DNA from: an uncultured Bacteroidales bacterium
GTDB taxonomy: Bacteria > Bacteroidota > Bacteroidia > Bacteroidales > UBA932
Assembly (NCBI GenBank): GCA_944326225.1
Contig: CALVDI010000006.1
Coordinates: 1,981-65,980, forward strand
Length of the DNA stretch: 64,000 bases
Reading direction: 5' to 3'
How positions within the stretch are numbered: position 1 is the stretch's first letter; every line of letters begins with the position of its first letter. Positions 45,000-59,572 of this stretch are shown piece after piece. Made by a program: the position numbers and the translations under genes. Under the pieces are notes generated by a model. The model did no database searches. It saw only the letters and a list, made by a program, of their open reading frames with translations, and was not told the origin of the DNA.

Positions 45000-45395
45000 A
45001 TGGAAGACTGGTTAGGTATTGTATTGGGAATCCTGTTTATTCTGGGACCGGCTCTGCTGGAGAAAGGCAGCAGGAAGAAAAAGCGCGGACAGAGACATGA
45101 ACGGCAGTTGCCGCAGCAGGATGAGGTGTATGGGCCGGAGCCGGTTCTGCGGCCTGAGACGACTGAGTCTCAGCTGCCCGAGGTAAGGCCGGTATATGTT
45201 CCGGTTCCGTCCGAAGAACCGATGACGTTCCCTGAGGAGACGGTCTCCAGTGAACCTGTTGCCCGGGAATCTGCTGCACCGGACAAGGCTGTTCCCGTTC
45301 CGGACCGCGGGAGCAATCCCCCTGCCCGCAGGAAACGCCGCTTCAATGGACGGGACATGATAATTTATTCCGAGATACTGAAGCCGAAATTTTAA
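45000..45395 (+). CDS. Small membrane-anchored Pro/Glu-rich protein
   Basis: N-terminal TM (WLGIVLGILFILGPALL), low-complexity middle, basic C-terminus. Confidence 0.5.
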   Translation: MEDWLGIVLGILFILGPALLEKGSRKKKRGQRHERQLPQQDEVYGPEPVLRPETTESQLPEVRPVYVPVPSEEPMTFPEETVSSEPVARESAAPDKAVPVPDRGSNPPARRKRRFNGRDMIIYSEILKPKF

Positions 45396-48025
45396 AATTT
45401 TACCTGCACACCCAGCAGTATGTTAAGAGGGCGTATTTTGTATTCGAAATGTGTTATCTGCATAGGCTGTAGGCTGGTGTATGAGAAGTTACGTTGATCA
45501 GTGAGGTTCTTCGCGTGAATGAAAACCTGAATATCAGGATTGATATAGTACCACGCTGATGCATTTATGAAGTAAGCCGAGAAGTGTGTATCGGTGCCGT
45601 ATTTGTTTAGATAGAAGTCACATGACAGATCAATGTCAAGCTTGTCAAAAGGAAGCAAGGTAAATGTTATGTTGTGGTCTGTGGAATGATTTGCAATTAT
45701 ACTTTCTGATTTACCGATGACGTAAGTCGAATATTCGTAACTGCCGGAGTAGTTTATACCGAGCCATCGTGTAATGTTTCCTTTGTATTGGATACCGACA
45801 ACATAATAGGATCCAGTGTATTCGTTTTGGATGTTGTTCTGAGATATGGTTGAGTTCATTCGTGAGAAGTCGAAAGTTCCTGTCAGTTTACTGGCGGATT
45901 TAAAGAAAGTTTTTGATATCTCGGTGCTCGAACTGCCTATTACGTAGTTGCTGATGTTGTTGGACAGAACATTTACGATATAGTCGTCATTCAAAAAGTA
46001 CCGTGTCTGTTCAAAGTCTTTTCCGGCAGAGTATCTCCCTTTGCCTTTTATGAACCATCCTTTCAGCGGATCGCGGTACTCCAGCTCCATATTTATGCTG
46101 TATCCGGGAAGTTGTCCGAGATCAGTGCGCCCTTGAGTGAGATATTTGTAATCCTGCATAATCAGACCTGAGAATATCTGCTGTTCGTCTATGGCTGACA
46201 TGGTGTAGTCTGTCATGGCCTTGACTGTGAATCTCGGACCGAAGTCGTATTTCATTTCTATTGATGGATTGACAGCAAAGTTATGTTTGTCCGTATCATC
46301 TGATGTGAGTTTGTAATTGATGTACTGATACCATGCATCAATGTAAATATATGCACTAAATCTTCTTGCAGTGAAGTTGAGTGTCAGATATTCCTTAGGC
46401 TGCAGGTACTGAAGCACGGCATCGTTGCTGTAAGTCTCGGGCGGCAGGCCCAGATTCAGGCCGTTAAACCAGGTGATAAGATGACGGCGCATATACGGCA
46501 GTTCGGTTTGAGAACTGAGCCTGAACCATTTGACAGGATTATAGGTGTGGCTGTATTTGATGTTGTTGTAGAAATACTCACCCTGTATATCCTGGACAGC
46601 ATCTTCATTATCGCTGTCAGAGAGGATATTCATGTTTTCAGTCTGCTTTGTGTATTGTGTGAACATCTGCATGCCGAATCCTGATTTCTCAAGCCGTCTG
46701 AAAAACCGAAGATAATTAAGAACGTTGAGACCATTAATATCTGAGTCTTCTTTTTTTGATGCGGTTCCGGTAAGATTATTATTTGCATTGCTGCCGGAAA
46801 ATTCAATCTGAAAATTATTCCTTAAATAGAGTTTTTTTGTATTAAGTTCAGCTGTGATATTACCGTATCCCAGGTATGCTGCGGAGCATGTGTTGTTGTA
46901 TTCGGTAAATTCTGCAGATTTTCCATCATCAATCATAAATTTCTGGACAACTGAATTATATGAAGAGAGAACCTCGTGCTCGAATAGTCCGGATATACCT
47001 ATTTTAAGGTTTTTACGTTTCCCGATCGAAAATTTATTGTTTGTGGTTGCCGAGTAGCTGGTGTTGAAACGTGTTCTTTCATCCTGTATGGGGGCTGACA
47101 AGTGATATATGCCGGTGAAGAGTCGCGGAGTATAGCGTTCACTGAGTTCCACGTTACTCCAGTCAGTGGAGAGCCCTGTGCCGTCAAGCGTGGAGGTAAT
47201 GTCGTTCCCTGCGGCATCCGTCTTCAGTGTGTTGATGGTCTGGAATTTCCTGCTTATGTTCATAAGCATCCCGCCGGCGGAATATGGAACCCATGGCTCT
47301 TCTGTACTACCCCCTGCTTCAGCCTGCAGAGTCCCAATCCATTTTGCTCTGGAATCGTTTTTCAATATAATATCAATTGCTGCTTGGTCGCTTTCAACAA
47401 TGCCTTCCAATGCCCTGACCGGCTGATGATTCTCGTATATTTTCACTTCTTTTATATCCTTAGGACTGATATTTTTAGTGGCAATGTTGTAGCGGCCTTC
47501 CAGCAGATCGTTGCCTTCAATGTATAATTTATTGATAGGCCGTCCGTACGCTTTTACGAATCCTTCTCTGTCCACACTTATTCCCGGTAGTTTTGTCAGT
47601 ACGTCACCAAGTACACGATCATCATTTGAAACAAGTGTCGGAATATAGTATGTGATGGTGTCTCCTGTTTTTTTCACTTGTTCAGCCTTGATAATAGTTT
47701 CGTTTAGTGTGATAATGTCTTCCGTCAGTTGTATTTCCATATATTCTTCAAACGGAGGCAGAAGCCTATAGGGCTTATATCCCATTATCCTGGCCTCCAG
47801 CGTGGTGCTGTCAGTTTCTGCCGACTGTATGCGCAATGTGAATATTCCGTCGGAATCGGTGAAAGAGTATGAGACAGGTATGCCTTTAAAATTTTTCAGA
47901 ATGACAGTAACTCCTTCAATTGGTTTCATTGTTTTACTGTCCGTTATTCTGCCTTTGATTTCGTCAGCAGATGCACTGATTGATAATGCGAGGAGTATAA
48001 TAATGGAGAATAGTCTTATTTTCAT
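45392..48025 (-). CDS. CarboxypepD_reg-domain outer-membrane beta-barrel (TonB-dependent-receptor-like)
   Basis: Signal peptide. IKGRITDSKTMKPIEGVTVILKN...DSDGIFTL, plug-like region, long beta-barrel ending ...GVQVKF. Confidence 0.75.
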   Translation of the reverse strand: MKIRLFSIIILLALSISASADEIKGRITDSKTMKPIEGVTVILKNFKGIPVSYSFTDSDGIFTLRIQSAETDSTTLEARIMGYKPYRLLPPFEEYMEIQLTEDIITLNETIIKAEQVKKTGDTITYYIPTLVSNDDRVLGDVLTKLPGISVDREGFVKAYGRPINKLYIEGNDLLEGRYNIATKNISPKDIKEVKIYENHQPVRALEGIVESDQAAIDIILKNDSRAKWIGTLQAEAGGSTEEPWVPYSAGGMLMNISRKFQTINTLKTDAAGNDITSTLDGTGLSTDWSNVELSERYTPRLFTGIYHLSAPIQDERTRFNTSYSATTNNKFSIGKRKNLKIGISGLFEHEVLSSYNSVVQKFMIDDGKSAEFTEYNNTCSAAYLGYGNITAELNTKKLYLRNNFQIEFSGSNANNNLTGTASKKEDSDINGLNVLNYLRFFRRLEKSGFGMQMFTQYTKQTENMNILSDSDNEDAVQDIQGEYFYNNIKYSHTYNPVKWFRLSSQTELPYMRRHLITWFNGLNLGLPPETYSNDAVLQYLQPKEYLTLNFTARRFSAYIYIDAWYQYINYKLTSDDTDKHNFAVNPSIEMKYDFGPRFTVKAMTDYTMSAIDEQQIFSGLIMQDYKYLTQGRTDLGQLPGYSINMELEYRDPLKGWFIKGKGRYSAGKDFEQTRYFLNDDYIVNVLSNNISNYVIGSSSTEISKTFFKSASKLTGTFDFSRMNSTISQNNIQNEYTGSYYVVGIQYKGNITRWLGINYSGSYEYSTYVIGKSESIIANHSTDHNITFTLLPFDKLDIDLSCDFYLNKYGTDTHFSAYFINASAWYYINPDIQVFIHAKNLTDQRNFSYTSLQPMQITHFEYKIRPLNILLGVQVKF

Positions 48026-48039
48026 TATGTTTCCGCGGA

Positions 48040-48726
48040 TTATTTGTAAGAAATAATGAACTCTTCAGGAAGAAAGCCCCAGCTGCGGCTGTCATAGGAC
48101 TGTGTCATGTTGTCTCCGCATACAAAATAGTAATCATGAGTGAATACGTGGATACTGTCCATGCGGGGTATACTGTCGTTTTCGTACTCAAAATCTATGA
48201 TTTTATTGTAAATATGCCATAAATGGTGGTCTCTCTTATACAGAGTGTCGCCTTTTTTCGGTATGTAAATCCAAGACATATTGAGTAGATCATCGTCACT
48301 GGAATAGCTGTTGTTAGTTATGACAGAATAGAATAATGGTGACGGATTGAGTGGCGCAGGTATCTGCCTGCAATGATATGTGGAGATGCCTGTCCGTCTG
48401 TTTAAGACAACACCATTGTCTATGCGTAGAGAATCTCCAGGGCCGGCGATACATCTTTTTATAAGCAGGTGATTGGTGTCGGGGGAAATAGTGGGCTTGT
48501 AGTCTTTGTACGGAAAATAGAAGATGACAACTTTGTCTGTAAGATTTTTTCTCCTTCCTTGCTTCAATCTGTAGGCCAGGATTTTATCTCCATCTTCAAG
48601 ATAAGGAGACATAGAACTGTCATGGATTCTGTATATGTCAAACTTGCATGATCCGATTATCATCAAGATTATAACGGCAGCTGCAGATACTGCAGTTGCA
48701 ACTCTATTTAATGTTCCACGATGCAT
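48040..48726 (-). CDS. S26 family signal peptidase I (accessory copy)
   Basis: N-terminal TM. SSMSP (Ser box), IKRCIAGPGD (Lys box), GDNMTQSYDSRSWG (box E): all catalytic motifs intact. Confidence 0.8.
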   Translation of the reverse strand: MHRGTLNRVATAVSAAAVIILMIIGSCKFDIYRIHDSSMSPYLEDGDKILAYRLKQGRRKNLTDKVVIFYFPYKDYKPTISPDTNHLLIKRCIAGPGDSLRIDNGVVLNRRTGISTYHCRQIPAPLNPSPLFYSVITNNSYSSDDDLLNMSWIYIPKKGDTLYKRDHHLWHIYNKIIDFEYENDSIPRMDSIHVFTHDYYFVCGDNMTQSYDSRSWGFLPEEFIISYK

Positions 48727-49198
48727 AATTGATTATTCTACCGTTGTAGACAAGGTATATTCCGTCTTGGGAATAAGTCTCCTCCGGTATGAATATAGTT
48801 GTTATATTTTCAGTCAGTTCATTTATATCTTCTTTTTCCATATAATATCTGAAAACTTCTTCTCCGCCTTTTACAAGAAGTAACTTGAACTCTTTGTCGT
48901 TGTGCATATCATAGTAGGTGCGTATAAAGTCAAATGCATCGGCTATGCAGAAAGAGCAGTCACCTGTTGCGACATATGCGATATATGGTTCTTCTGATTC
49001 TATATTGGCGGCAGCCGTTCTCCAAAGAGTGTCTGTACGTACCATTTTCTGTATGGGGATACATTCTATGTCGTAGATAAAGGAAACGGCATTGATTGTT
49101 TTATGTTTTTTAGCTGTTTGGATATCAGTGCAGCCGTTAATGGCGGACAGACATCCGTGGCTGAAAAGCATGATGAGAATAATCAGTACTTTATACAT
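48704..49198 (-). CDS. Secreted thioredoxin-fold-like protein with a CxxC motif
   Basis: Signal peptide; ...YIAYVATGDCSFCIADA... places CxxC after a beta-strand, as in TlpA/DsbE-type proteins. Confidence 0.5.
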   Translation of the reverse strand: MYKVLIILIMLFSHGCLSAINGCTDIQTAKKHKTINAVSFIYDIECIPIQKMVRTDTLWRTAAANIESEEPYIAYVATGDCSFCIADAFDFIRTYYDMHNDKEFKLLLVKGGEEVFRYYMEKEDINELTENITTIFIPEETYSQDGIYLVYNGRIINYASWNIK

Positions 49199-49199
49199 A

Positions 49200-50099
49200 T
49201 TATAAATCCGTCTCAATAAAGTCGTTGCCTAAAGGAGTGAAAGAGGCATAGCTCTCTGGAGTGTTCTCAACAAAAACAGCAGAGTTGACAAGGTAGACCT
49301 CACTGGCGACCCAGTATCTTGTCTCGTGAAGAATCTTTGCCTCCATATATTTCTTCCGGCTAGTTTTGAGATACAGGTAATCCGGCAGATAGATGTCACC
49401 TTCGGTAAAATAAATATTGTCCAGTGTAAACCTGTAGTATCCGTCTTTATCGGATACAGATATGATTAGCCCCGGAAGACCGTGGAATTTCCAGGGCCCG
49501 GCCTGGGAGGGAATCTCTGTCGTGAACCATGCGGTATAGTCTCTGCCCCTGAAAGTGCATGTAGCCATTACGGCATTGTATCCGGCTATTATTTTAGTAC
49601 TGTCTTGGATAGACCATTCGATATTCATGGATTTTTCTTTATACAGAAAGTCCTGAGTGATTATCCTGCCTGTACAAGTCCATTCGTCATTTTGAAGATT
49701 GTGTATGAAGGTCTCATAGAAAGTCAGCAGACCCACTTTTGAGCCGGCTATTTTCTTATTACCAAGATAACTGGATACGATACCATGACGAACCAGTGAG
49801 TCTGTCTCAAAGAACAGCCGGTTGTAGTACTTGGTGTAGGTTCTGCCGATTTCCAATGTGGCTTGCCCTTCTTCTGTTGCTCCTGTCAAAGTGTCTTTGA
49901 CAAAAGCATAGGAATATCCTGCTCTCATGATAATCCTGTCAAGAGAATCGGCCGGATAGATTTTACTGTCCATAAACAGGACGCTCTCGTATTGGCCGGG
50001 AATGTCACTGTCCATGAAAATCATTGTACTCTGAGCCTTGACTTGCAATATGCAGCAACAGATAACGATGATTAAGACAAAGAATGGCTTGTAGCTCAT
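49200..50099 (-). CDS. GLPGLI family protein
   Basis: Signal peptide and the eponymous motif WKFHGLPGLIISV. Confidence 0.8.
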   Translation of the reverse strand: MSYKPFFVLIIVICCCILQVKAQSTMIFMDSDIPGQYESVLFMDSKIYPADSLDRIIMRAGYSYAFVKDTLTGATEEGQATLEIGRTYTKYYNRLFFETDSLVRHGIVSSYLGNKKIAGSKVGLLTFYETFIHNLQNDEWTCTGRIITQDFLYKEKSMNIEWSIQDSTKIIAGYNAVMATCTFRGRDYTAWFTTEIPSQAGPWKFHGLPGLIISVSDKDGYYRFTLDNIYFTEGDIYLPDYLYLKTSRKKYMEAKILHETRYWVASEVYLVNSAVFVENTPESYASFTPLGNDFIETDL

Positions 50100-51154
50100 T
50101 ATATGGCGAATCTTGTTAATCGCGTAATGCCGTTATTGTCGGTTACTGCGGCATAGATATATCCGTCAGAGTAGGTCATATAGTAATAAATAACCCCGTT
50201 TATTCTATATGCTCCCTTATAGTTGCCATCCCAATCAAAATTGATGAGGTAAGTGTAGAGACTGTCGCTGTCATCACTCATCCCAAGGTATGCCGCATAT
50301 ACATCAGACCCATCGCTGCATGCGCATAAATATGTGTTGCAGAAACCTCCTGACTGCATAGGAATATTGTTTTCGTCAATATTCTTAGGAAATGTAAAGA
50401 CAGGCTGTACATTGTCCGGTCCCGTAATCTTTCTTATAATATTCAGGGAATAATCGTACACTTCAAGCAAGTCGTCAAATCTGTCGAAATAGAGTATCCT
50501 GTCTTTTTCCTTGTTGGAAATCAAGATGCCGGCAGAAATATTCAGTGTCAAGTATTTTCCGTCTTCCCAACCGGGAGTGAAGCCAGGACCGGTAACAAGA
50601 AATTTATCTCCGGCTTCTTGTTTGCTTACTCTTTGGTCATCCGTCCAGTACGGGCTTAAATAGAGGAGTCTGTCCTTGTAGGGCATTATCTGGTTTGTCC
50701 AGAAATCTATCCCGATAACGTCAGGACTGTATCCGCTGTCACTGATTGCACGCCTGAGGTCAACAATAGTGATGCAGTCCTTTATCACGTCGTGCAATAT
50801 AAGTGTATCACCATGAATATAGGGTTGTGCTGAAAGGAGTTGTCCTTGTCCTCTGCCGAACTCTACCGCTGTGTAGATAGGCTCTGCGTTGTTGAATGTG
50901 TATATTTTCAGAAGTTTGTCGCCAGGAGTTTCAGAAGATACGTTTATACAGATTATGCAGCTGTCATTGTATGTCAGCATAAACGGTGCGTCAAGAGTGT
51001 CATACTTAAAGCCGGTGCGTACAGGCTCGGAGGCCAATTCCTTAGCGGAAAGTTTGATTTCCTGTGGAATGGCTGTCGTATCGATGTCTTTTGCAAAAGA
51101 GCATCGGCACAATACCGCAAGGACGCATACTGCGGTAATAAAGTACCTGTTCAT
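50099..51154 (-). CDS. Secreted beta-propeller protein (BF3164 / 6-bladed TolB-like type)
   Basis: Signal peptide. Repeated hydrophobic-strand/Asp-Gly pattern resembling Bacteroidales 6-bladed propeller lipoproteins (recall only). Stop overlaps the next start (TAATG). Confidence 0.55.
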   Translation of the reverse strand: MNRYFITAVCVLAVLCRCSFAKDIDTTAIPQEIKLSAKELASEPVRTGFKYDTLDAPFMLTYNDSCIICINVSSETPGDKLLKIYTFNNAEPIYTAVEFGRGQGQLLSAQPYIHGDTLILHDVIKDCITIVDLRRAISDSGYSPDVIGIDFWTNQIMPYKDRLLYLSPYWTDDQRVSKQEAGDKFLVTGPGFTPGWEDGKYLTLNISAGILISNKEKDRILYFDRFDDLLEVYDYSLNIIRKITGPDNVQPVFTFPKNIDENNIPMQSGGFCNTYLCACSDGSDVYAAYLGMSDDSDSLYTYLINFDWDGNYKGAYRINGVIYYYMTYSDGYIYAAVTDNNGITRLTRFAI

Positions 51155-51186
51155 AAGATTGTTATGTTTGAAATTTCTTATTCGGT

Positions 51187-51462
51187 TCAGTTTTCAGTAT
51201 TACCGCCAAGACCTGGTGTGCCGCCGTTCTCATTTTTCGGTTCAGCCTTACCGTAGCATTTGAATGTTGAGCCACTGGTTGTAACCCCTTTCATGCAGGT
51301 CAGGACTTTCCCTTTGCAGACATAGTCAGTACCGTCCATTGTAAATGAACAGATCTCAGCCTGAACGTTTCGTATGTTGTTAATCTTGCTGATTGTTGTC
51401 AATACTGCGCCGGCAGTAATTGCAAATGCGATGATGATTGCAGTGGCACTGTTTTTTTTCAT
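51187..51462 (-). CDS. Signal-anchored 4-Cys peptide precursor (NVEALA-like leader)
   Basis: MKKNSATAIIIAFAITAGAVLTTISKINNIRNVQA then EICSF...VCKG...TCMKG...KCYG... and a Gly/Asn-rich tail. First gene of the operon. Confidence 0.6.
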   Translation of the reverse strand: MKKNSATAIIIAFAITAGAVLTTISKINNIRNVQAEICSFTMDGTDYVCKGKVLTCMKGVTTSGSTFKCYGKAEPKNENGGTPGLGGNTEN

Positions 51463-51564
51463 TGTGATTGGTTTTAAAAAGTTAAACATATCGTAAAGAT
51501 ATACATAAAAAAACTAAAAAGCAAGTATTGGCAGTAAAAGATTGTTTGATTTGGAAAATTTATT

Positions 51565-52125: not shown

Positions 52126-52527
52126 ATGTCATCTGTTTTTACCAGAATAGTCAACGGGGAGATTCCTTCCTACAAGGTGGCCGAGACGGAGCACTGCTAC
52201 GCGTTTCTGGATATCAATCCGCTGAAGGAGGGACATACTCTGGTCATCCCCAAGAAGGAGGTCGATTATCTCTTTGATCTGGACGAGGCGCTTTATTCTG
52301 AGCTGATGCTTTTCGCCCGTAAGGTGGCTGCCGCTGTACGGGCCGCCGTGCCCTGCAAAAGGGTAGGCGTGGCTGTACTCGGTATGGAAGTACCTCATGC
52401 CCACATCCATCTTGTACCGCTGGATACAGAAGGGGATCTGGACTTCAGAAAGCAGAAACTGGAACTTACGCCCGAGCGTTTCAAGGAGATATCCGCATCC
52501 ATAGCCGCAGAATATGCAAAACTCTGA
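52126..52527 (+). CDS. HIT family (histidine triad) protein
   Basis: HAHIHLVP histidine triad. Confidence 0.9.
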   Translation: MSSVFTRIVNGEIPSYKVAETEHCYAFLDINPLKEGHTLVIPKKEVDYLFDLDEALYSELMLFARKVAAAVRAAVPCKRVGVAVLGMEVPHAHIHLVPLDTEGDLDFRKQKLELTPERFKEISASIAAEYAKL

Positions 52528-52531
52528 GTCT

Positions 52532-53701
52532 ATGAGATCGAAGTACTACTGGATTGGTATGTTCACCCTGCCGTTGTTCGTGGCTCTTATGACGATGTGC
52601 GGAGACAGGGATACAGCGCGTATAAGTCTTACAGTAAAAGGTGCTCCCGACAGTACTCAGGTAGTGGTCTCACGCTTGGCATTGAATCAGATGCAGGTAC
52701 TGGATACAGTCTGCACCGTCGGGGGGAAGGCGGAGTGCCGTGTGACGGTCAATCCGGGTTCTCCCGAGTTCATATATCTGACTTTTGGCAGTGACGGCGT
52801 GGTCTCCCTGCTTCTGCAGGGCAGGGACAGGGTAAGCGTTGCGGCGGACTGGTCCCGGCCGTCGGTCGTGTCGATTGATGGTTCCGAGGAGTCGGTGCTT
52901 ATGCAGGAGGTGAATGACGGCATCCGGACTTTCAATCACAAGTTCGATTCCCTGTTCGCGGAGATGTCTTCGGCCGAGGCGGAGGAAGATGTAGACAGAA
53001 GTTCCGCTCTCAGGCGCGAACTCGGATTGCTGTATGTGAGGCACAAGCAGGATGCCCTGCAGTATGTGCTGCGGCATAGGGGCTCGATGACGGTAATCCC
53101 GGTGCTGTATCAGGTGGCTCCGAACGGACAGTGGATATTCTCTGAAATGACCGACGCTCTTGTCATGGAGCAGGTGTATGATACTCTGCATACGCTTTAT
53201 CCTGTCTCGCCGTATCTGGCCGCTCTGGCCGACGAGGTCCAGTCAAGGCGCAATGTCATGGATATGGGCAATATTCTTTCGGATGCGGAGGAAGTGGATT
53301 TTCCGGAGATAGCCCTGGCCGATGTGAACGGAGAAATGCGGAGTCTGACAGCCCTCAAGGGCAGGGTGGTCGTGCTGTATTTTTGGGACCCCTCGGTGAT
53401 GGAGCAGCGTATCTTCAATGTCGGGCTGAAAGAACTTTATGAGAAGTACAGTGGCCGTGGCCTGGAGATATACCAGGTGGCCGTGACCCAGGACAAGACT
53501 GCGTGGGCCATGCAGGTCAAGGAACAGGAACTGCCGTGGATCAGTGTCTGCGATCCTTCCGGAGCGTCGTCAGCGGCGGTAGTGATGTACAATGTGTCAC
53601 AGTTGCCGGCCATGTACGTTATCTCCAGAGACGGAGTGATAACGGCCAGAGACCTGTTTGAGACTGATAAGCTGGGACAGGAAATCAGCCGTCTGTTATG
53701 A
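52532..53701 (+). CDS. TlpA/AhpC-like thioredoxin-fold protein lacking the CxxC motif
   Basis: C-terminal VVVLYFWDPSVMEQRIFN sits where FWASWCGPC is expected. N-terminal TM/lipoprotein-like anchor. Confidence 0.6.
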   Translation: MRSKYYWIGMFTLPLFVALMTMCGDRDTARISLTVKGAPDSTQVVVSRLALNQMQVLDTVCTVGGKAECRVTVNPGSPEFIYLTFGSDGVVSLLLQGRDRVSVAADWSRPSVVSIDGSEESVLMQEVNDGIRTFNHKFDSLFAEMSSAEAEEDVDRSSALRRELGLLYVRHKQDALQYVLRHRGSMTVIPVLYQVAPNGQWIFSEMTDALVMEQVYDTLHTLYPVSPYLAALADEVQSRRNVMDMGNILSDAEEVDFPEIALADVNGEMRSLTALKGRVVVLYFWDPSVMEQRIFNVGLKELYEKYSGRGLEIYQVAVTQDKTAWAMQVKEQELPWISVCDPSGASSAAVVMYNVSQLPAMYVISRDGVITARDLFETDKLGQEISRLL

Positions 53702-54427
53702 TCTGTCCGGATGCAGGACGGCATCCAGTTTCCTGGACGGACTGGCTGCGATAAATTCTTTAAGGTAGAACGGTTCGAAGTAGGCTGCATCTTCGAACCG
53801 TTTTTCCGTATATGCCCTGCGGGCCGGTTCCGCCATATATGCGGCATCGGGATGGCTTGCTGTAAATGTGCACCTGTCCAGGTACTCAGGATTGATGACC
53901 TGCCTGTATTTCCCGGCTCCGTCTCCGGTGAATATCAGGTGTCCGTATCCGGCTATCTCTCCGGCGAATGTATCCGGCTCAAGGATGACTGCTTTTGTGT
54001 CGGATATCCTGCGTCCCGATGAGTCGAACAGGGCCGTGTACACCTCCATCCTTCTGGCATCAATCATGGGAATAATCAGGGTATCAGCGGATATGTTCCC
54101 GGTACTCAAGGCGCCGCAGGCTATTGCTTCCAGGGTTTCTACCGCGATAAGCGGCAGGCCTGCTCCGAAGCAAATGCCTTTTGCGGTCGATACGCCTACC
54201 CGGAGTCCAGTGTAGGAACCCGGTCCGGAGCTGACGGCTACGGCCGACAGATCTTTGGCGGAAAGACCGGCCTTTTTCAGGACTTCGTCAATCATCGGAG
54301 CGAGTCCTGATGCCTGACTCTTGGGCTCGGATGTGTATCTGGCGGAAATAATCCCTTTTCCGTCTGTTATGGCTGCGGAACATACGTCCGTGGCCGTCTC
54401 AATAAGCAGTATCTTATCGTTCATCAT
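53696..54427 (-). CDS. tsaB: tRNA t6A37 biosynthesis protein TsaB
   Basis: ILLIETATDVCSAAI..., GPGSYTGLRVG motifs. Confidence 0.9.
   Translation of the reverse strand: MMNDKILLIETATDVCSAAITDGKGIISARYTSEPKSQASGLAPMIDEVLKKAGLSAKDLSAVAVSSGPGSYTGLRVGVSTAKGICFGAGLPLIAVETLEAIACGALSTGNISADTLIIPMIDARRMEVYTALFDSSGRRISDTKAVILEPDTFAGEIAGYGHLIFTGDGAGKYRQVINPEYLDRCTFTASHPDAAYMAEPARRAYTEKRFEDAAYFEPFYLKEFIAASPSRKLDAVLHPDRS
53769..53805 (+). terminator. Rho-independent terminator for the plus-strand gene, embedded in the convergent tsaB CDS
   Basis: AACGGTTCGAAG-taggctgcat-CTTCGAACCGTT followed by TTT; about 70 nt past the stop at 53701. Confidence 0.55.
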
Positions 54428-55637
54428 CGTTGTGTTTTTCTATATCGGCATTGACTTTCATCCCGTCCTCCAGTACTCTGTTCACGGTGCTGTACGGTCC
54501 GGTGACGATCCAGGTGGAGTCCGCGTCTTCCAGGCCTCCTGTTATCTGGATGTTCTCTATGCTCTGGATGCCCGTGCTCACCTTGACGGAGCTGACGGTG
54601 GCCGTGGACGGGTCGTATGTGAATATGCATTCTTCGGAAGTAACGGCCTGCAGGGGTACGGTCAGGGCATTGTCCTGTCTGTCAGTCTCTATCTCTACCG
54701 ATGCGGACATGCCCGGCCTGAACGGGATGGGGTCTTTTTCCAGCAGGTCTGCATAGGATGCCGGCAGCAGCCGGATCCTGACCTCGAAGTTGGTTACGTC
54801 CGTAAGGGCGGAGGTGGCTGCAGTAAGGTTTTTCGCCGAATTGGCAATCTGAGTGACCACTCCCTTGAAACGTCTGCCCGGGTATGCGTCCACGTCGATA
54901 TCGGCCGTGTCGCCTTTTGTTATGCGTATGATGTCATTCTCGTTGACATCCACGAGCACTTCCATCATGTTGAAGTCGGCTATCCGCAGCATCTCGGTTC
55001 CGGCCATCTGGGAGGTGCCCACGACCCTTTCTCCTTTCTCTACGCTAAGGCTGGATATGATGCCGTCGATAGGGGAGTATATGACGGTCTTGGTCAGGTT
55101 CTCCTCGGCCTCGCTCAATGAAGCGGTGGCGCTTTCAATGTTGTACTCGGCGGCCTTCAGCTGTTCCGCGGCCATTCCGTACTCAGCAGTGCTGGCCTCG
55201 AACTCCTGCAGGGAGATGGCCCGCTTCTCATAGAGGTCCCGGTTGCGGTTGTAATTCTGCTCGGCCTGGTCAAAAGCGGCTTTCTGCTGACGGTACTGGG
55301 CCTTCGTGGAGTTGAGGGATGCCTCCGCCCTGTCTCTCAAGGATATGTAGACATCCTGCCGGATCTTGATGATCAGGTCTCCTTTCCGGACTCTGTCGCC
55401 CTCCTCCACGTTGAGCTCGATGATCTCTCCTGAGACATCGGGACTTATCTTTACTTCCGTCACAGGACGTATCTTTCCGTTTGCAGGTATCTTTTCTATG
55501 ATGGTCTCTCTCGTCGGACGGTTGATGACGACAGGCTCGCCCTTGTCCGTCCTTAGCAGAGCAAACAGGACGGCGGCCGTCACAGCTGCGGCCATGGCGA
55601 TGAGAGTGTATCTTATGCCTTTTCTTTTCTTTCCCAT
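54414..55637 (-). CDS. Membrane fusion protein (HlyD/MacA-type periplasmic adaptor)
   Basis: N-terminal TM, lipoyl-like and coiled-coil hairpin, beta-barrel domain; 407 aa. Confidence 0.8.
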   Translation of the reverse strand: MGKKRKGIRYTLIAMAAAVTAAVLFALLRTDKGEPVVINRPTRETIIEKIPANGKIRPVTEVKISPDVSGEIIELNVEEGDRVRKGDLIIKIRQDVYISLRDRAEASLNSTKAQYRQQKAAFDQAEQNYNRNRDLYEKRAISLQEFEASTAEYGMAAEQLKAAEYNIESATASLSEAEENLTKTVIYSPIDGIISSLSVEKGERVVGTSQMAGTEMLRIADFNMMEVLVDVNENDIIRITKGDTADIDVDAYPGRRFKGVVTQIANSAKNLTAATSALTDVTNFEVRIRLLPASYADLLEKDPIPFRPGMSASVEIETDRQDNALTVPLQAVTSEECIFTYDPSTATVSSVKVSTGIQSIENIQITGGLEDADSTWIVTGPYSTVNRVLEDGMKVNADIEKHNDDER

Positions 55638-55639
55638 AA

Positions 55640-56974
55640 TTATAGTGACATAGGTATCCCTTTATAAAAGTCTATGATTTTCAATTGGAATACGAATTGG
55701 TACCTGGCCTGCAGGTATTCTGACCTGGCTTTGAACAGGTTGGCCCTGGCTACGGTATAGTCGGTGCCGTTCAGGACACCGGAGTTGAACTTCTCCTCCA
55801 CGTATCTGAAAGACTCCTGCATGGATGCGACATTGGCCTCGGCTGCTTCCATCTGACGGTAATAGGTCTCGGCTTCAGTAACGGCGGTCTGTATCTCCTT
55901 GTAGAGAGTCTGCTCCTTGGCCCTGAGCTCCAGTTCCAGGCTCTCTCTGGCCAGCCTGGCGTTTCTGACGTTGGTCTTGACGCTCCAGTTGTTGAAGATC
56001 GGGATACTCAGGCCGACGGTTATGGACGGATTGATGTTGTCCCGGAACTGCTCGAAGAACGGATATACGCTTCCGTCCGGGGCAAAGGTTGAGGAACTGT
56101 AGAAGGTCCCGTAGCTGGCGGACAGGGATATCTTCGGATAGAGCTGGCCTTTGGCTGACTTCAGATCCAGCTCTCCTTTGTCCAGGGCCAGTCTGGCACT
56201 CTGTATCACGGGCATGGACAGAGCTCCGGCATAGATCTCGTCGATATTGTCGGCAGTGTATCCCTGTATGATGTAATCTATATCCGGCACAGCTATGCGG
56301 AAGTCCGGACTGTACTGCAGATCCAGCAGCTGCTGAAGGGCCAGGGTGTTGGTCCTGACCTGGCTCTCGGCCGTGACAACCTGCACTCTCTCGGAGGCCA
56401 GCTGGGACTCTATGTCCAGCAGGGAAGTGTAGGGCTGACTGCCGGCCTCTACCAGCAGCCGGGTCCTGTCTCTCTGCTCCTGGAGCGAATGGAAACTCTC
56501 TTCCGCAGCGGCAAGTATTTCCCGGGCCAGAAGTATCTGCAGGTAACTCTTGGCGATGGAGACGGATATCTCGTCCTTGAGCCTCTCGACTTCCTGTATG
56601 GAGATCTCCAGACTCTTCTGACTGCTTTTAAGACCGTACAGCTTTGACAGACCGTCCAGCAGGTATATTGAGGCATTTGCCGACGCGCTGGTGCTCTGGG
56701 ACAGCTTGTTGTGTATGATTTCCAGGTTCTGGAGGTCTACTGAGCGGCCCCAGTTGAGGTTGTGCCCGAAAGAGACATTGAGACTGGGAGCAAAGTCCAG
56801 CTTGTCCTGAAGCAGCTGGGCCTCGCTTCGGGAGACCTCGATGTTCTGCTGCTTGATGGACAGGTTGTTGCTCCAGGCATATTCAATACACCTTTCCAGG
56901 GTCCATGTCTCCTGGGCAAGAGCGGTCTGGCTCAGAACCAGAGCTGAAAGTATTAAGCATATCCTGTAGTTCAT
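55640..56974 (-). CDS. TolC family outer-membrane channel
   Basis: Signal peptide MNYRICLILSALVLSQTALAQ and two tandem OEP repeats. Start set 27 nt downstream of a TATTTTTG box. Confidence 0.85.
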   Translation of the reverse strand: MNYRICLILSALVLSQTALAQETWTLERCIEYAWSNNLSIKQQNIEVSRSEAQLLQDKLDFAPSLNVSFGHNLNWGRSVDLQNLEIIHNKLSQSTSASANASIYLLDGLSKLYGLKSSQKSLEISIQEVERLKDEISVSIAKSYLQILLAREILAAAEESFHSLQEQRDRTRLLVEAGSQPYTSLLDIESQLASERVQVVTAESQVRTNTLALQQLLDLQYSPDFRIAVPDIDYIIQGYTADNIDEIYAGALSMPVIQSARLALDKGELDLKSAKGQLYPKISLSASYGTFYSSSTFAPDGSVYPFFEQFRDNINPSITVGLSIPIFNNWSVKTNVRNARLARESLELELRAKEQTLYKEIQTAVTEAETYYRQMEAAEANVASMQESFRYVEEKFNSGVLNGTDYTVARANLFKARSEYLQARYQFVFQLKIIDFYKGIPMSL

Positions 56975-57001
56975 GCCTTTCCTGTCTATCCTATCGTCGT
57001 G

Positions 57002-57009
57002 CAAAAATA
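57002..57009 (-). promoter_or_regulatory. -7 box (TATTTTTG) for tolC-MFP(-tsaB), formed by the T-tract of the preceding terminator
   Basis: Exact TAnnTTTG on the minus strand, 27 nt upstream of the ATG at 56974. Confidence 0.45.
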
Positions 57010-57057
57010 ATAAAAATAAAGAGGCTGTGGCCGAAATTCGCGCCCGGTCACAGCCTC
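57003..57057 (-). terminator. Rho-independent terminator after the second GG-leader peptide gene
   Basis: GAGGCTGTGACC...GGCCACAGCCTC stem (about 12 bp) followed by TTTATTTTTATTATTTTT on the minus strand. Confidence 0.7.
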
Positions 57058-57062
57058 AATTA

Positions 57063-57233
57063 TCAGAATGCCGAAGCGGTCTGAGGTTTCTTACCGTTTC
57101 TGAGCAAGTCATAAAGAGCCCTGAGAGCCGCGCCTACAAGCCGGCCGAGCATACGTGCCACATTACCCTCTGAGCTGCCTCCTCCTATTATCGAGCAGGA
57201 TTCACTTCTTCTAAGTACGATGAACTGTTCCAT
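57063..57233 (-). CDS. Double-glycine-leader peptide B (56 aa, absent from the ORF track)
   Basis: Codon-by-codon hand translation: MEQFIVLRRSESCSIIGG / GSSEGNVARMLGRLVGAALRALYDLLRNGKKPQTASAF. Leader has L(-12) E(-8) I(-4) GG. 8 nt after peptide A. Confidence 0.65.
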   Translation of the reverse strand: MEQFIVLRRSESCSIIGGGSSEGNVARMLGRLVGAALRALYDLLRNGKKPQTASAF

Positions 57234-57241
57234 AGCAGCGA

Positions 57242-57430
57242 TCAGTTACCGGTTGAACATGCTGCCTCCTTTCCGGTCCACCCCTCGATGAATCCCAACA
57301 GGAACTGATCGATGTTGTCGACGAAGAATTTTACGATTTTGCCCCATAGGCCGGCACCCCCGCGGACGGTGGCGCAAAGGTCAGAATTAACACATTCAAA
57401 CCCTTCATACCTTTGAATAATTCTTTCCAT
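57242..57430 (-). CDS. Double-glycine-leader peptide A (62 aa)
   Basis: MERIIQRYEGFECVNSDLCATVRGG / AGLWGKIVKFFVDNIDQFLLGFIEGWTGKEAACSTGN. Lies 45 nt downstream of the C39-ABC gene. Confidence 0.65.
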   Translation of the reverse strand: MERIIQRYEGFECVNSDLCATVRGGAGLWGKIVKFFVDNIDQFLLGFIEGWTGKEAACSTGN

Positions 57431-57475
57431 GATGCTAGATTTTAATGTTGTGCCGCAGATAAAAGGCGCTGCGGC

Positions 57476-59572
57476 TTACGCCTGTGAACGCGCGTTCTTA
57501 TGTGATAGATCTATTATGTTGTCGGCAATGTCCAGTGCCTGCTCCTCGTGGGATATGAGCACTGTCGTGATATTGTGCTCTTTAAGAAGACAGATAGTGT
57601 CAGTCAGCCTCTTGCGGCTCTCCTGGTCCAGAAATGTGGCCGCCTCGTCCAGAATCAGCACTTTGGGCTGGCGGTACAGGGCTCTGGCCAGGGCTATCTT
57701 CTGTCTTTCTCCCCCGGACAGTCTGCATCCATGCTCTCCGGTATGGGCCGTTATACCGCCCGGCAGGCTCTCTATCGTGCGGGCCAGACCGGCCATGGCG
57801 CATACTGCAGTGACGGAACGCATGTCGTAGTCCCTGTCTCCCATTACTATGTTGTCCAGGATGCTTCCGTCGGATATTTCCGGCTTCTGCGGGACTATCG
57901 AGATGTATTTCCGCCAGGTGTCCAGCGGGATGGTCTGTATGTCCACTCCGCCGGCGGTGATGCTTCCGCTATGGGGCGCATAGCCCCGCATCAGCAGTGC
58001 CGCGACGGTGCTCTTGCCGCTGCCGTTGGCTCCGAGTATGAGGTTGGTCTTTCCGGGCAGGATCCTGAACGAGAGTCCGTCCAGCAGTTGCTCTCTTCCG
58101 GGGAATGAGAAGCAGATGTCTCTGGCCTCGATGATGTCGTCCTGTGCCGGCTGGAACCTTACTGTCCCTGTGGGCTCTTCCCCCTCCAGGTCCAGGATGT
58201 CGAATATCCTCTCCGCTGATATCCGTGCTTCGGCAATCTCACGGCTGCTCTCGATGAGCAGGACTACGGGAGAGCTGAAGACGGTGGTCATGGATATGAA
58301 GGATACCAGTTCTCCTACGGTCAGCTCGGAATTCAGTACGAAAAACGCTCCCGCAAGCAGGGTCGTAAGATATACTGCCCGGCTGACAGTGTCGGAGACG
58401 GAGGCTACGGCCGATGCCAGCACTCCTCCACCGTACAGTGCGGATGCCGTCCTGAAGTACTGTGTCTCTATCTTTCTTACGGCCTCTCTCTCGGAGTTGA
58501 AATATTTTACGTCCCTGACTGCGGAGAGCTGCTCGATGCTGGTCTGCTCGAACCTGGCGTTCTCCTCTATGATCCGCCGGTTGACTTTTCTGTTGAGCCT
58601 GTCCGAGACTATGTACAGCAGGACGAACAGCGGTATGAAGCTCAGGACGATCAGTGTGAGTTTCCAGTAGAAGGTCATGAGCACGGCGGTGGCTATGGTC
58701 AGGGTGATGACGCTTATTGTCATCAGCAGCAGTCTCTCGGTGATGAACGACCGTATGCGGTAGGCGTCTGATACTCTGGAGTTGAGCTCTCCGCTGCTCA
58801 TGGAGTTGAAGAACGACAGCGGCAGCGAGAACACTTTGCGGAAATATTCCGTGATGAGGCGGCAGTCTATCTTGATGCTTGTACGTACCAGCAGGACAGA
58901 CCTTACGTAGGATATGTACCAGCACAGCAGGGCAAGGCATATCATGACGGCTCCTGCGGTCAGCAGTCCGTTGCGGTTACCTGCCGGTATGACCGAGTCG
59001 ATGATCCTCTGCAGGAATACGGATATGCTCAGAGTGGCGGCTATGTAGGCGGCCGAGCCGGCCAGTACCAGTGCCAGCTCCTTTCTGTAGAACGTGAGAA
59101 TGTCCTTGAACCGGCCGAGGATGTCGGTCCTCATGTCTCCCTTTTTGAACATCGGCGAAGGGGTGACGGCGATGATGTAGCCGCTCCATTCTTCTTCCAG
59201 TTCTTTCAGACTGGTCCTGTGCATCCTTCCGTCCTCTGGGTCCATGATCCGGGCATGGTCCTTGTCCATCCCGTAGAGGACCACGAAGTGCAGCCATCCG
59301 CTTTTCTTCTCCAGATGCAGTATGACTGGCCTCTCCACATTACGGAGACTGTCCATGTCCTTGTCCTTCGCCTTCAGTCCGGCCGCTTCAAGTCCCAGCT
59401 TGCCGCAGGCATCGATGACGCCCTGCATGGTGGTGCCGTCCGCGTTTGTCCCGCAGGCCTCCCGTATCCTTATAAGGGGCAGCCTGAGTCCGTAATGGGC
59501 GCATACTGACGCGACGCATGCGGCGGCGCAGTCATTCCGGTCCTGTTGTCTGATTCTGATCTCCTTCTCCAT
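57476..59572 (-). CDS. C39 peptidase-domain ABC transporter (bacteriocin/GG-peptide exporter)
   Basis: QQDRNDCAAACVASV (catalytic Cys), WLHFVVLYG (His), six TM helices, GANGSGKST, LSGGERQKIALARAL, VLILDEA. Confidence 0.9.
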   Translation of the reverse strand: MEKEIRIRQQDRNDCAAACVASVCAHYGLRLPLIRIREACGTNADGTTMQGVIDACGKLGLEAAGLKAKDKDMDSLRNVERPVILHLEKKSGWLHFVVLYGMDKDHARIMDPEDGRMHRTSLKELEEEWSGYIIAVTPSPMFKKGDMRTDILGRFKDILTFYRKELALVLAGSAAYIAATLSISVFLQRIIDSVIPAGNRNGLLTAGAVMICLALLCWYISYVRSVLLVRTSIKIDCRLITEYFRKVFSLPLSFFNSMSSGELNSRVSDAYRIRSFITERLLLMTISVITLTIATAVLMTFYWKLTLIVLSFIPLFVLLYIVSDRLNRKVNRRIIEENARFEQTSIEQLSAVRDVKYFNSEREAVRKIETQYFRTASALYGGGVLASAVASVSDTVSRAVYLTTLLAGAFFVLNSELTVGELVSFISMTTVFSSPVVLLIESSREIAEARISAERIFDILDLEGEEPTGTVRFQPAQDDIIEARDICFSFPGREQLLDGLSFRILPGKTNLILGANGSGKSTVAALLMRGYAPHSGSITAGGVDIQTIPLDTWRKYISIVPQKPEISDGSILDNIVMGDRDYDMRSVTAVCAMAGLARTIESLPGGITAHTGEHGCRLSGGERQKIALARALYRQPKVLILDEAATFLDQESRKRLTDTICLLKEHNITTVLISHEEQALDIADNIIDLSHKNARSQA

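Follow-up and report, generated by a model that had tools for sequence, protein, structure and literature searches.

A signal-anchored four-cysteine mini-protein with a putative signal peptidase site heads an accessory envelope operon in an uncultured Bacteroidales bacterium

The stretch of DNA analyzed here (the window) comprises 64,000 nucleotides of an uncultured Bacteroidales bacterium (lineage UBA932; assembly GCA_944326225.1, contig CALVDI010000006.1, positions 1,981 to 65,980 of the forward strand). Within the window, a low-GC accessory island carries an operon of six minus-strand genes, the first of which (51187 to 51462) encodes a 91-amino-acid (aa) peptide precursor with four cysteines. 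The following genes encode, in this order, a six-bladed propeller lipoprotein, a GLPGLI family protein, a protein with a CxxC motif, a type I signal peptidase of the S26 family, and an 877-aa barrel protein, with gaps or overlaps of −23 to +32 nucleotides (nt) between genes. A previous sequence-only reading of the window had placed the peptide gene at the head of this operon, together with the S26 and CxxC genes, and our analysis confirmed this arrangement. We tentatively favor the view, possible if somewhat short of probable, that the first gene encodes a signal-anchored precursor which is released by the S26 peptidase, forms disulfides with the aid of the CxxC protein, and acts with the propeller, the GLPGLI protein, and the barrel, which resembles TonB-dependent transporters (TBDT).

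The translation of positions 51187 to 51462 (minus strand) was identical to the 91-aa sequence given by the sequence-only reading. An in-frame ATG at position 51489, 27 nt upstream of the 91-aa start, would yield a 100-aa version (P0001), which is the choice of metagenome gene callers. We preferred the shorter form because the homologues all start at the equivalent MK/MR/MN-(R)K position and because TATCTTTA, read by eye as similar to a Bacteroidetes-type −7 box, ends 4 nt before the upstream ATG. The scan for sigma-70 promoters and terminators was uninformative as to a Bacteroidetes promoter, and an Rfam scan of the region from 44.5 to 60.5 kb gave no match. The ratio of nonsynonymous to synonymous substitution rates (dN/dS) of the peptide genes in loci L007 and L010 was ~0.10 (dS of ~1.1, dN of 0.10), pointing to purifying selection. 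Together with the syntenic homologues, which keep the features of the precursor at 23 to 50% identity, this low ratio argues for a conserved protein-coding gene and against a chance open reading frame (ORF).

The peptide family is tiny and rare. Word-indexed and exhaustive HMMER searches recovered very little. One returned two near-identical clusters, and phmmer against 1.84 billion representatives gave four matches: P0002 (a fragment of the same peptide), P0010, P0011, and P0012. Only P0010 (52% identity) is a true homologue, P0011 and P0012 being rejected as repeat-driven artifacts. A profile search of 5.8 billion proteins found six clusters only, and a scan of JGI metagenomes with the peptide profile found no relative. 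The propeller was a better guide. Its homologues (43 to 47% identity) sit in loci of the same gene order, each headed by a gene of 79 to 80 aa, and scans of GTDB genomes and JGI metagenomes with a propeller profile provided four further members, in loci L021, L022, L023, and L028. L021 comes from a Muribaculaceae metagenome-assembled genome, and L022 has the same sequence as L025. The resulting alignment holds nine distinct members of 78 to 91 aa. The window peptide and its relatives had no match above threshold among the Pfam, NCBIfam, and PADLOC models; the sub-threshold matches among the relatives were to DUF6520 (L021) and ExtJ (L028). A profile search of the PDB with the mature peptide gave no sequence match.

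All four cysteines, and one glycine in a C-x-G motif, were invariant in the nine members. The possibility raised by the sequence-only reading, that homologues would lack conserved cysteines, was thus not borne out. The spacing is C-x10-12-C-x6-C-x10-14-C in the family and C-x10-C-x6-C-x12-C in the window protein, where the codons lie at 51349 to 51351 (Cys38), 51316 to 51318 (Cys49), 51295 to 51297 (Cys56), and 51256 to 51258 (Cys69) of the minus strand.

The leader of the window protein (residues 1 to 35; 51358 to 51462, minus strand) is made of MKKN, a 21-residue uncharged stretch of transmembrane (TM) length, and a 10-residue polar spacer, KINNIRNVQA. The last four residues of the spacer, NVQA (residues 32 to 35), had been singled out as resembling a cleavage site. 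A cut after A35 would indeed leave a 56-aa peptide (51190 to 51357, minus strand) with the four cysteines followed by a Gly/Asn-rich tail; the tail is present in the window protein and is not conserved across the family. The leader plan is common to the nine members: a positively charged n-region (MKKN in the window; MKRK, MRK, or MNRK in the relatives), 19 to 24 uncharged residues, a polar spacer (of precisely 10 residues in six members), and a small-x-small site. The sites read VQA, ASA, VKA, VQA, VKA, AKA, VKA, LSS, and VSA, with alanine (eight members) or serine (one) at position −1 and valine (six), alanine (two), or leucine (one) at position −3. Proline was never found at +1, and the first cysteine (Cys1) occupied positions +1 to +3, i.e., it followed the site after 0 to 2 residues. 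The proposed fit of V-Q-A↓E (the arrow marks the putative cut) to the −3/−1 rule of type I signal peptidases (SPase I) therefore extends to the family, as a conserved [V/A/L]-x-[A/S] site. The rest of the leader drifts and this site alone is conserved, the pattern expected of a processing site.

The same leader differs from a textbook signal peptide. The h-region of an SPase I substrate is short (about 7 to 15 residues), and this stretch measures 21 residues in the window protein and 19 to 24 in its relatives. The h-regions of the GLPGLI, barrel, propeller, and CxxC proteins of the operon have 10 to 16 residues, and the anchor of the S26 peptidase itself has 19. The signal peptides of the GLPGLI protein and of the barrel end in VKA↓Q and ASA↓D, respectively, which indicates that sites of this type are used by SPase I in the host organism. 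Of the initial description of the N terminus as a TM or signal anchor with a cleavable site, the TM-length anchor stands, and the 10-residue spacer sets the leader apart from a standard signal peptide. The precursor is, as far as its sequence tells, a signal anchor followed by a spacer and an AXA-type site.

The S26 peptidase (228 aa; 48040 to 48726, minus strand) has one N-terminal TM segment and matches PF10502 (8e−21; 75 bits versus a cut-off of 22.9) and TIGR02227 (4e−21; 75 bits versus 47). Boxes B, D, and E align with those of Escherichia coli LepB (PDB 1T7D), with SM, KR, and GDNxxxSxDSR matching, and Ser38 (48613 to 48615), Lys90 (48457 to 48459), and GDNMTQSYDSR fall on S90, K145, and GDNxxxSxDSR of that enzyme. 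The island enzyme is thus of the LepB type, with its Ser/Lys dyad intact. It is accessory and not the housekeeping signal peptidase, since the whole island is absent from conspecific strains; as the empty site makes it dispensable for the species, it is presumably specialized. Ser38 lies 11 residues beyond the TM segment of the enzyme and the putative scissile bond 10 to 11 residues beyond the anchor of the substrate, a geometric match that may place the catalytic serine at a height above the membrane similar to that of the site. In locus L013, the S26 gene (L013:3690-4385) has a 1-nt deletion in the part coding for the TM segment relative to L012:5200-5910 and was called as 189 aa, which could reflect an assembly error or a natural inactivation.

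The CxxC protein (164 aa from MYKVL; 48704 to 49198, minus strand; a TTG start at 49216 is possible) carries a CSFC motif at 48947 to 48958. C81, S82, and C84 were invariant in seven homologues (C-S-x-C), most of which have an L-x-S-C lipobox, indicating that the protein is a lipoprotein. It had no match in Pfam, in NCBIfam, or, by profile search, in the PDB. Its single-sequence AlphaFold2 (AF2) model (pLDDT of 40.7) was unusable, and a helix after the motif is visible only there. The alignment of its profile, using hhalign, with a local TlpA-like domain and with a 192-aa CxxC protein of L023 gave probabilities below 1%. A thioredoxin fold is plausible. Just outside the island, the core genome encodes a 395-aa protein (52514 to 53701, plus strand) with a C-terminal AhpC-TSA/Thioredoxin_8 domain (precomputed Pfam annotation of identical contigs). 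This protein seems to be devoid of a CxxC motif, reading FWDPSVMEQ, and is unrelated to the CxxC lipoprotein by hhalign. An argument that Bacteroides lack Dsb enzymes was considered and dropped, since a table for Bacteroides thetaiotaomicron lists the DsbA-family protein BT2225 (PMC10434189) and the literature search gave the argument no support.

The three remaining genes of the operon encode envelope proteins. The six-bladed, TolB-like propeller lipoprotein (351 aa; 50099 to 51154, minus strand) matches PF15869 below the cut-off (1.8e−4; 21.4 bits versus 29.2), and four of six aligned homologues match this family, the best at 1.4e−13; a single-sequence search of the PDB with the window copy gave no match. 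The GLPGLI family protein (299 aa; 49200 to 50099, minus strand) has an ordinary signal peptide and matches TIGR01200 (6e−44; 150.5 bits versus a cut-off of 50) and PF09697. The 877-aa outer-membrane protein (45392 to 48025, minus strand) comprises a carboxypeptidase-regulatory-like N-terminal domain, a plug-like region, a barrel, and a C-terminal phenylalanine. It matches PF13620 and PF13715, and its N-terminal domain matches a TonB-dependent receptor (PDB 6YTC) and a SusC homolog (9HFJ). The plug family PF07715 was found in four of six homologues, weakly (best match, 2.7e−4), with no match in the window copy, and the barrel portion had no model match. These features suggest a TBDT-like protein, which by default points to import.

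The comparison of loci separates constant from accessory partners. In five diverged locus types (the window type, L007/8, L010, L012, and L022), synteny joins the peptide to both the S26 peptidase and the CxxC lipoprotein, and CxxC lipoproteins also adjoin peptides in L023 and L027. In L021, the peptide (AKA↓GIC) is accompanied by the GLPGLI protein, the propeller, and the barrel, with no S26 or CxxC gene nearby, and in L024 the propeller is directly followed by the barrel. The invariant core thus consists of peptide, propeller, GLPGLI protein, and barrel, with the S26 and CxxC proteins as frequent accessories. The propeller appeared in all loci of sufficient length to contain it; its gene lies directly downstream of that of the peptide in most of them and at another place within the locus in L021 and L022. 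The earlier statement that the S26 and CxxC genes match exactly the two processing steps of the peptide was thus too strong: at most they are helpers, or housekeeping enzymes suffice. In the loci with 43 to 47% identity, a TPR protein of 563 to 578 aa and a DUF3244 protein precede the peptide operon (L007:475-2730, L010:115-2307, and L012:155-2370). One of the TPR proteins has a weak C-terminal GerE/LuxR match, and the pair may be a regulator module that is absent from the window island.

The island (6.15 kb; 45401 to 51554) is flanked by a 134-aa gene and greA, and each of its junctions carries AAAATTT. Its GC content is 0.39 to 0.44 (about 45.4 to 51.5 kb) against 0.55 to 0.57 in the flanks. 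Conspecific contigs, recovered through the neighboring GreA protein, showed an empty site in L032 and L034 to L038, where the 134-aa gene and greA are 108 bp apart, and an occupied one in L031 and L033, with the six genes of the operon between the two. The GC drop and the empty sites identify the island as a horizontal acquisition that some strains carry and others lack. By alignment, the junctions are at about 45400/45401 and 51554/51555, and the occupied site lacks 13 nt of the empty one, which rules out a clean target duplication. There is no integrase in the island. A tblastn search of plasmids with the propeller and the CxxC protein, a scan of viral contigs for relatives, and a search of the island with PADLOC models gave no match.

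Within this operon, the peptide gene alone is repeatedly silenced. Its codons 2 to 4 contain a run of eight adenines (A8; 51452 to 51459, minus strand), which is found in the window and, among the fetched conspecific loci, in L001 to L006 and L031. A run of nine (A9) in L019, L020, and L033 shifts the frame to MKKKQCHCNHH...stop. The 50-aa gene call derived from A9 (P0002) is listed in 36 collection blocks and the 100-aa call on 8 contigs. In L018 (L018:5304-5456 and upstream), unrelated sequence replaces the 5′ half of the peptide gene, including the start codon and the anchor, leaving a truncated peptide, while the genes of the propeller, GLPGLI, CxxC, S26, and barrel proteins are intact. 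A co-degeneration of the S26 gene in L018 was considered and rejected, the gene being intact and only its called start different. The rubrerythrin and cytochrome c peroxidase genes adjacent to the L018 operon place the island in a different genomic context there. This pattern of silencing fits a costly or frequency-dependent peptide product, and phase variation through the A8/A9 tract is possible.

We infer cleavage at the site, the disulfides, the part played by the CxxC protein, and the localization and final function of the peptide from this body of evidence, as follows. Sec would insert the pre-peptide with its TM-length anchor in the inner membrane and its C terminus in the periplasm. The accessory peptidase of the island would then cut at V-Q-A↓E, ~10 residues past the anchor, and free a putatively beta-rich peptide of 56 aa, whose four cysteines would be oxidized to two disulfides with the aid of the CxxC lipoprotein. 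At the outer membrane, the freed peptide would act with its three constant partners (propeller, GLPGLI protein, and TBDT-like barrel) and would most likely be handed to or through this membrane, possibly by an export like that involving Oar of Myxococcus xanthus, or as a ligand of the barrel receptor. A role in competition or signaling is our guess.

Several observations weigh against this scenario. The leader is atypical for SPase I, with its 19 to 24 uncharged residues and a spacer of ~10, and long h-regions usually yield uncleaved signal anchors, so that non-cleavage stays a live rival. The AF2 model of the peptide (five-sequence alignment; pLDDT of 50.3) shows, at low confidence, a helix at residues 7 to 30 followed by five short strands. 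A thioredoxin fold is putative for the CxxC protein, and the peptide of L021 does without both helpers. In L027 (L027:1529-3466), beside an IS-like transposase, the propeller and CxxC lipoprotein follow a different signal-bearing ORF of 55 aa with one cysteine (...SQKANA↓QYMRPNC...), which indicates that the CxxC lipoprotein is not strictly tied to four-cysteine peptides. Finally, TBDT-like barrels normally import. The requirement of a TBDT for protein export has a precedent in the Oar/PopC system (PMC6434023).

The main competitor, a serious one that we nevertheless hold to be somewhat unlikely, is an uncleaved bitopic membrane protein, in which the signal anchor is permanent and the periplasmic four-cysteine domain, as tether or subunit, docks a complex of propeller, GLPGLI protein, and TBDT-like barrel to the inner membrane, leaving the S26 peptidase with another substrate or with other island proteins to process. 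The TM-length stretch, similar to the anchor of the S26 peptidase and unlike the h-regions of the other exported island proteins, speaks for it, as do the single long helix of the low-confidence model, the persistence of the peptide in L021, and the fact that peptide and propeller share a locus in every contig long enough for both. An uncleaved anchor gives no reason, however, for small residues at −1 and −3 right before Cys1 while the spacer drifts. Moreover, the GLPGLI protein and the barrel have ordinary signal peptides, suited to the housekeeping SPase I, and the propeller and CxxC proteins have lipobox-type leaders, so that the peptide alone stands out as an unusual candidate substrate of the accessory S26 peptidase. 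A sharper version of the favored reading, to which we give a slim chance, makes the peptide a secreted antibacterial akin to Sec-dependent bacteriocins, the propeller its immunity or escort protein, and the island a competition module. The island is accessory, of low GC content, and variably present, and the loss of the peptide alone, by A9 or by the 5′ deletion of L018, with the downstream genes intact, is typical of toxin loss with immunity retained; the tandem peptide and propeller pairs of L023, with their diverged peptides, also resemble toxin/immunity arrays. Yet our searches of Pfam, NCBIfam, PDB, and PADLOC revealed no similarity to a known bacteriocin or PADLOC model, the peptide lacks the amphipathic or cationic signature typical of pore formers, and it is not clearly more diverged than its neighbors (30 to 46% versus 43 to 53% identity).

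Two further readings are unlikely for the window protein. A precursor resembling those of ribosomally synthesized and posttranslationally modified peptides (RiPPs), very improbable in our view, would have a leader that directs the core to a modifying enzyme, either the propeller or the CxxC protein making thioether or other cross-links, before proteolytic release. A small precursor with a conserved cut site and a Cys-rich core, first in an operon with a protease, would suit such a system, and the propeller has many invariant polar residues. On the other hand, Pfam and NCBIfam scans recognized no maturase (rSAM, YcaO, LanB/C/M, or cyclodehydratase), the leader is a membrane anchor and not a cytoplasmic recognition sequence, and all the partners carry export signals, so the chemistry would have to be periplasmic. 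Scarcely credible is a lipoprotein precursor in which Cys1 would be the lipidated +1 cysteine of a V-K-A-C lipobox. The sequence V-[KQ]-A↓C does occur, with cysteine at +1, in P0013, P0014, P0015, L007, L010, and L012. In the window protein, P0010, L021, L022, and L028, however, one or two residues intervene between the site and Cys1 (AEIC, AGMC, AGIC, AGC, and ASC). The window site (VQA-E-I-C) follows the hydrophobic core after 10 polar residues, and in general the distance of ~10 polar or charged residues and the K or Q at −2 are unlike lipoboxes; lipidation would also leave an odd number of cysteines for disulfides.

A peptide-export cluster resembling the class II bacteriocin type (54414 to 59572, minus strand) lies ~3 kb from the island, in the core genome (55% GC), and is unrelated to it. 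It encodes an ABC transporter with a C39 peptidase domain (57476 to 59572; PF03412 at 8e−30, PF00664, and PF00005), two small ORFs with double-glycine-like leaders (57242 to 57430, ...CATVRGG↓AGLWGK...; 57063 to 57233, ...CSIIGG↓GSSEG...), a TolC/OEP protein (55640 to 57004), and an HlyD protein (54414 to 55637), all on the minus strand.

The release of the peptide by cleavage at V-Q-A and its closure by two disulfides, if true, would represent the first processing pathway for mini-proteins of this kind, a case in Bacteroidota of a LepB-type peptidase dedicated to its substrate, and a handle on the role of GLPGLI proteins and their TBDT-like barrels. NVEALA-type mini-proteins that pair with a six-bladed propeller lipoprotein abound in Bacteroidales genomes. 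The island offers a compact and testable version of them, in which 6 kb hold a single peptide, a dedicated signal peptidase, a CxxC lipoprotein, and three partners in the envelope. The strains with an empty site, the A9 frameshift alleles, and the 5′-deleted allele provide natural controls. The boldest interpretation, which has a small though not negligible chance, is that of a self-contained mobile "make-and-move" module without a described counterpart, which would release the peptide with its own LepB-type peptidase, lock its disulfides with its own CxxC protein, carry it by the propeller and GLPGLI proteins to a TonB-dependent-type barrel for export or for re-import with cargo, and toggle it through the A8/A9 tract. 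If this were so, competition or signaling by means of peptides would be the role of all the NVEALA/propeller cassettes of Bacteroidales.

Parts of this organization recall known systems. In the tapA-sipW-tasA operon of Bacillus subtilis, a dedicated type I signal peptidase, dispensable for viability, is encoded with its substrates, just as the accessory S26 gene of the island shares an operon with its putative secreted substrate. SipW is an ER/archaeal-type Ser/His enzyme, whereas that of the island is of the bacterial, LepB-like Ser/Lys type, and the substrates differ as well, being amyloid fibers in a Gram-positive envelope there and a four-cysteine mini-peptide here. The mitochondrial S26 peptidases Imp1/Imp2 cut shortly after the stop-transfer anchor of bipartite sorting signals and free a soluble domain on the trans side. 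The proposed geometry of anchor, about 10 residues, and site is alike, and the likeness is limited to it, Imp1/Imp2 belonging to a eukaryotic organelle system with unrelated substrates. Some Sec-dependent or disulfide-containing class II bacteriocins have accessory thiol-disulfide oxidoreductases, such as PedC for pediocin and BdbB for sublancin. They share with the island a small exported peptide, two disulfides (here putative), and a CxxC accessory protein encoded alongside; unlike them, the window peptide has no double-glycine leader (no GG motif precedes the core, and the island has no C39 gene) and no sequence similarity, and its context is Gram-negative with outer-membrane components. 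The Oar protein of M. xanthus (PMC6434023) is, like the barrel of the island, a TBDT-type protein with a carboxypeptidase-regulatory-like N-terminal domain that is genetically tied to a protein or peptide leaving the periplasm. It differs from the island barrel, for which the plug match is weak (four of the six homologues), and the island has no TonB or ExbBD genes.

The closest parallel is found in the NVEALA (PF14055)/DUF5128-propeller cassettes, of which the NVQA site had been thought reminiscent. At the level of alignment, this resemblance did not hold. Neither the window peptide nor eight relatives matched PF14055 (gathering score of 27 bits), even at an E value of ≤10. The literal NVEALA-type motif is absent, with NVQA in the window protein and HVKA, QVKA, EASA, VAKA, SVKA, and EVSA in relatives; DVEALS occurs only in L023:966-1211. 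The literal NVEALT peptides of L023 themselves reach only 15 to 16 bits against PF14055. When the peptide family was compared with the NVEALT pair by hhalign, the alignment covered the hydrophobic anchor alone, which was not counted as homology. Full-text literature searches returned no paper mentioning NVEALA and nothing functional on GLPGLI, PF14055, or DUF5128.

At the level of context, the resemblance did hold. L023:1-10851 (CAVAMP010000005.1) is a tandem array of cassettes of anchored mini-peptide and six-bladed propeller with CxxC proteins interspersed. The family member with DVEALSS↓C is followed by a CxxC lipoprotein, the two NVEALT peptides are each followed by a propeller, and the array includes another CxxC protein and a DNLDALTS peptide followed by a DUF5128 propeller (PF17170, 3e−7). 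The array also contains a transglutaminase-like protein and is followed by a Wzy_C and TPR protein. L022 is labeled as Bacillota and L023 as Flexilinea sp., assignments that look odd for genes of Bacteroidales type, so that mis-binning is possible. In B. thetaiotaomicron, a published table lists, under tags close together, an O-antigen ligase family protein (BT0662), a hypothetical protein (BT0663), a 6-bladed beta-propeller (BT0664), and lepB (BT0667) (PMC10434189), a proximity which may mean that SPase I genes accompany propeller cassettes in Bacteroides as well. The window cassette is joined to a GLPGLI protein, a TBDT-like barrel, and a dedicated S26 peptidase, unlike NVEALA cassettes, and the cysteine spacing of its family differs from that of the L023 NVEALT peptides (C-x15-C-x2-C-x12-C). 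In common with NVEALA cassettes, it has a peptide of ~80 to 90 aa with a Lys-rich start, a TM-length anchor, a short spacer, a small-residue motif, and a Cys-containing C-terminal part, encoded together with, and usually directly upstream of, a six-bladed propeller lipoprotein, with CxxC lipoproteins interspersed. The contextual hallmark of NVEALA proteins, which is not a formal criterion, is a small protein of ~68 to 85 aa beside such a propeller, and the members of the family, at 78 to 91 aa, show this arrangement. We therefore regard the window gene not as a PF14055 member but as a probable new variant of the catalogued cassette of anchored mini-protein and six-bladed propeller.

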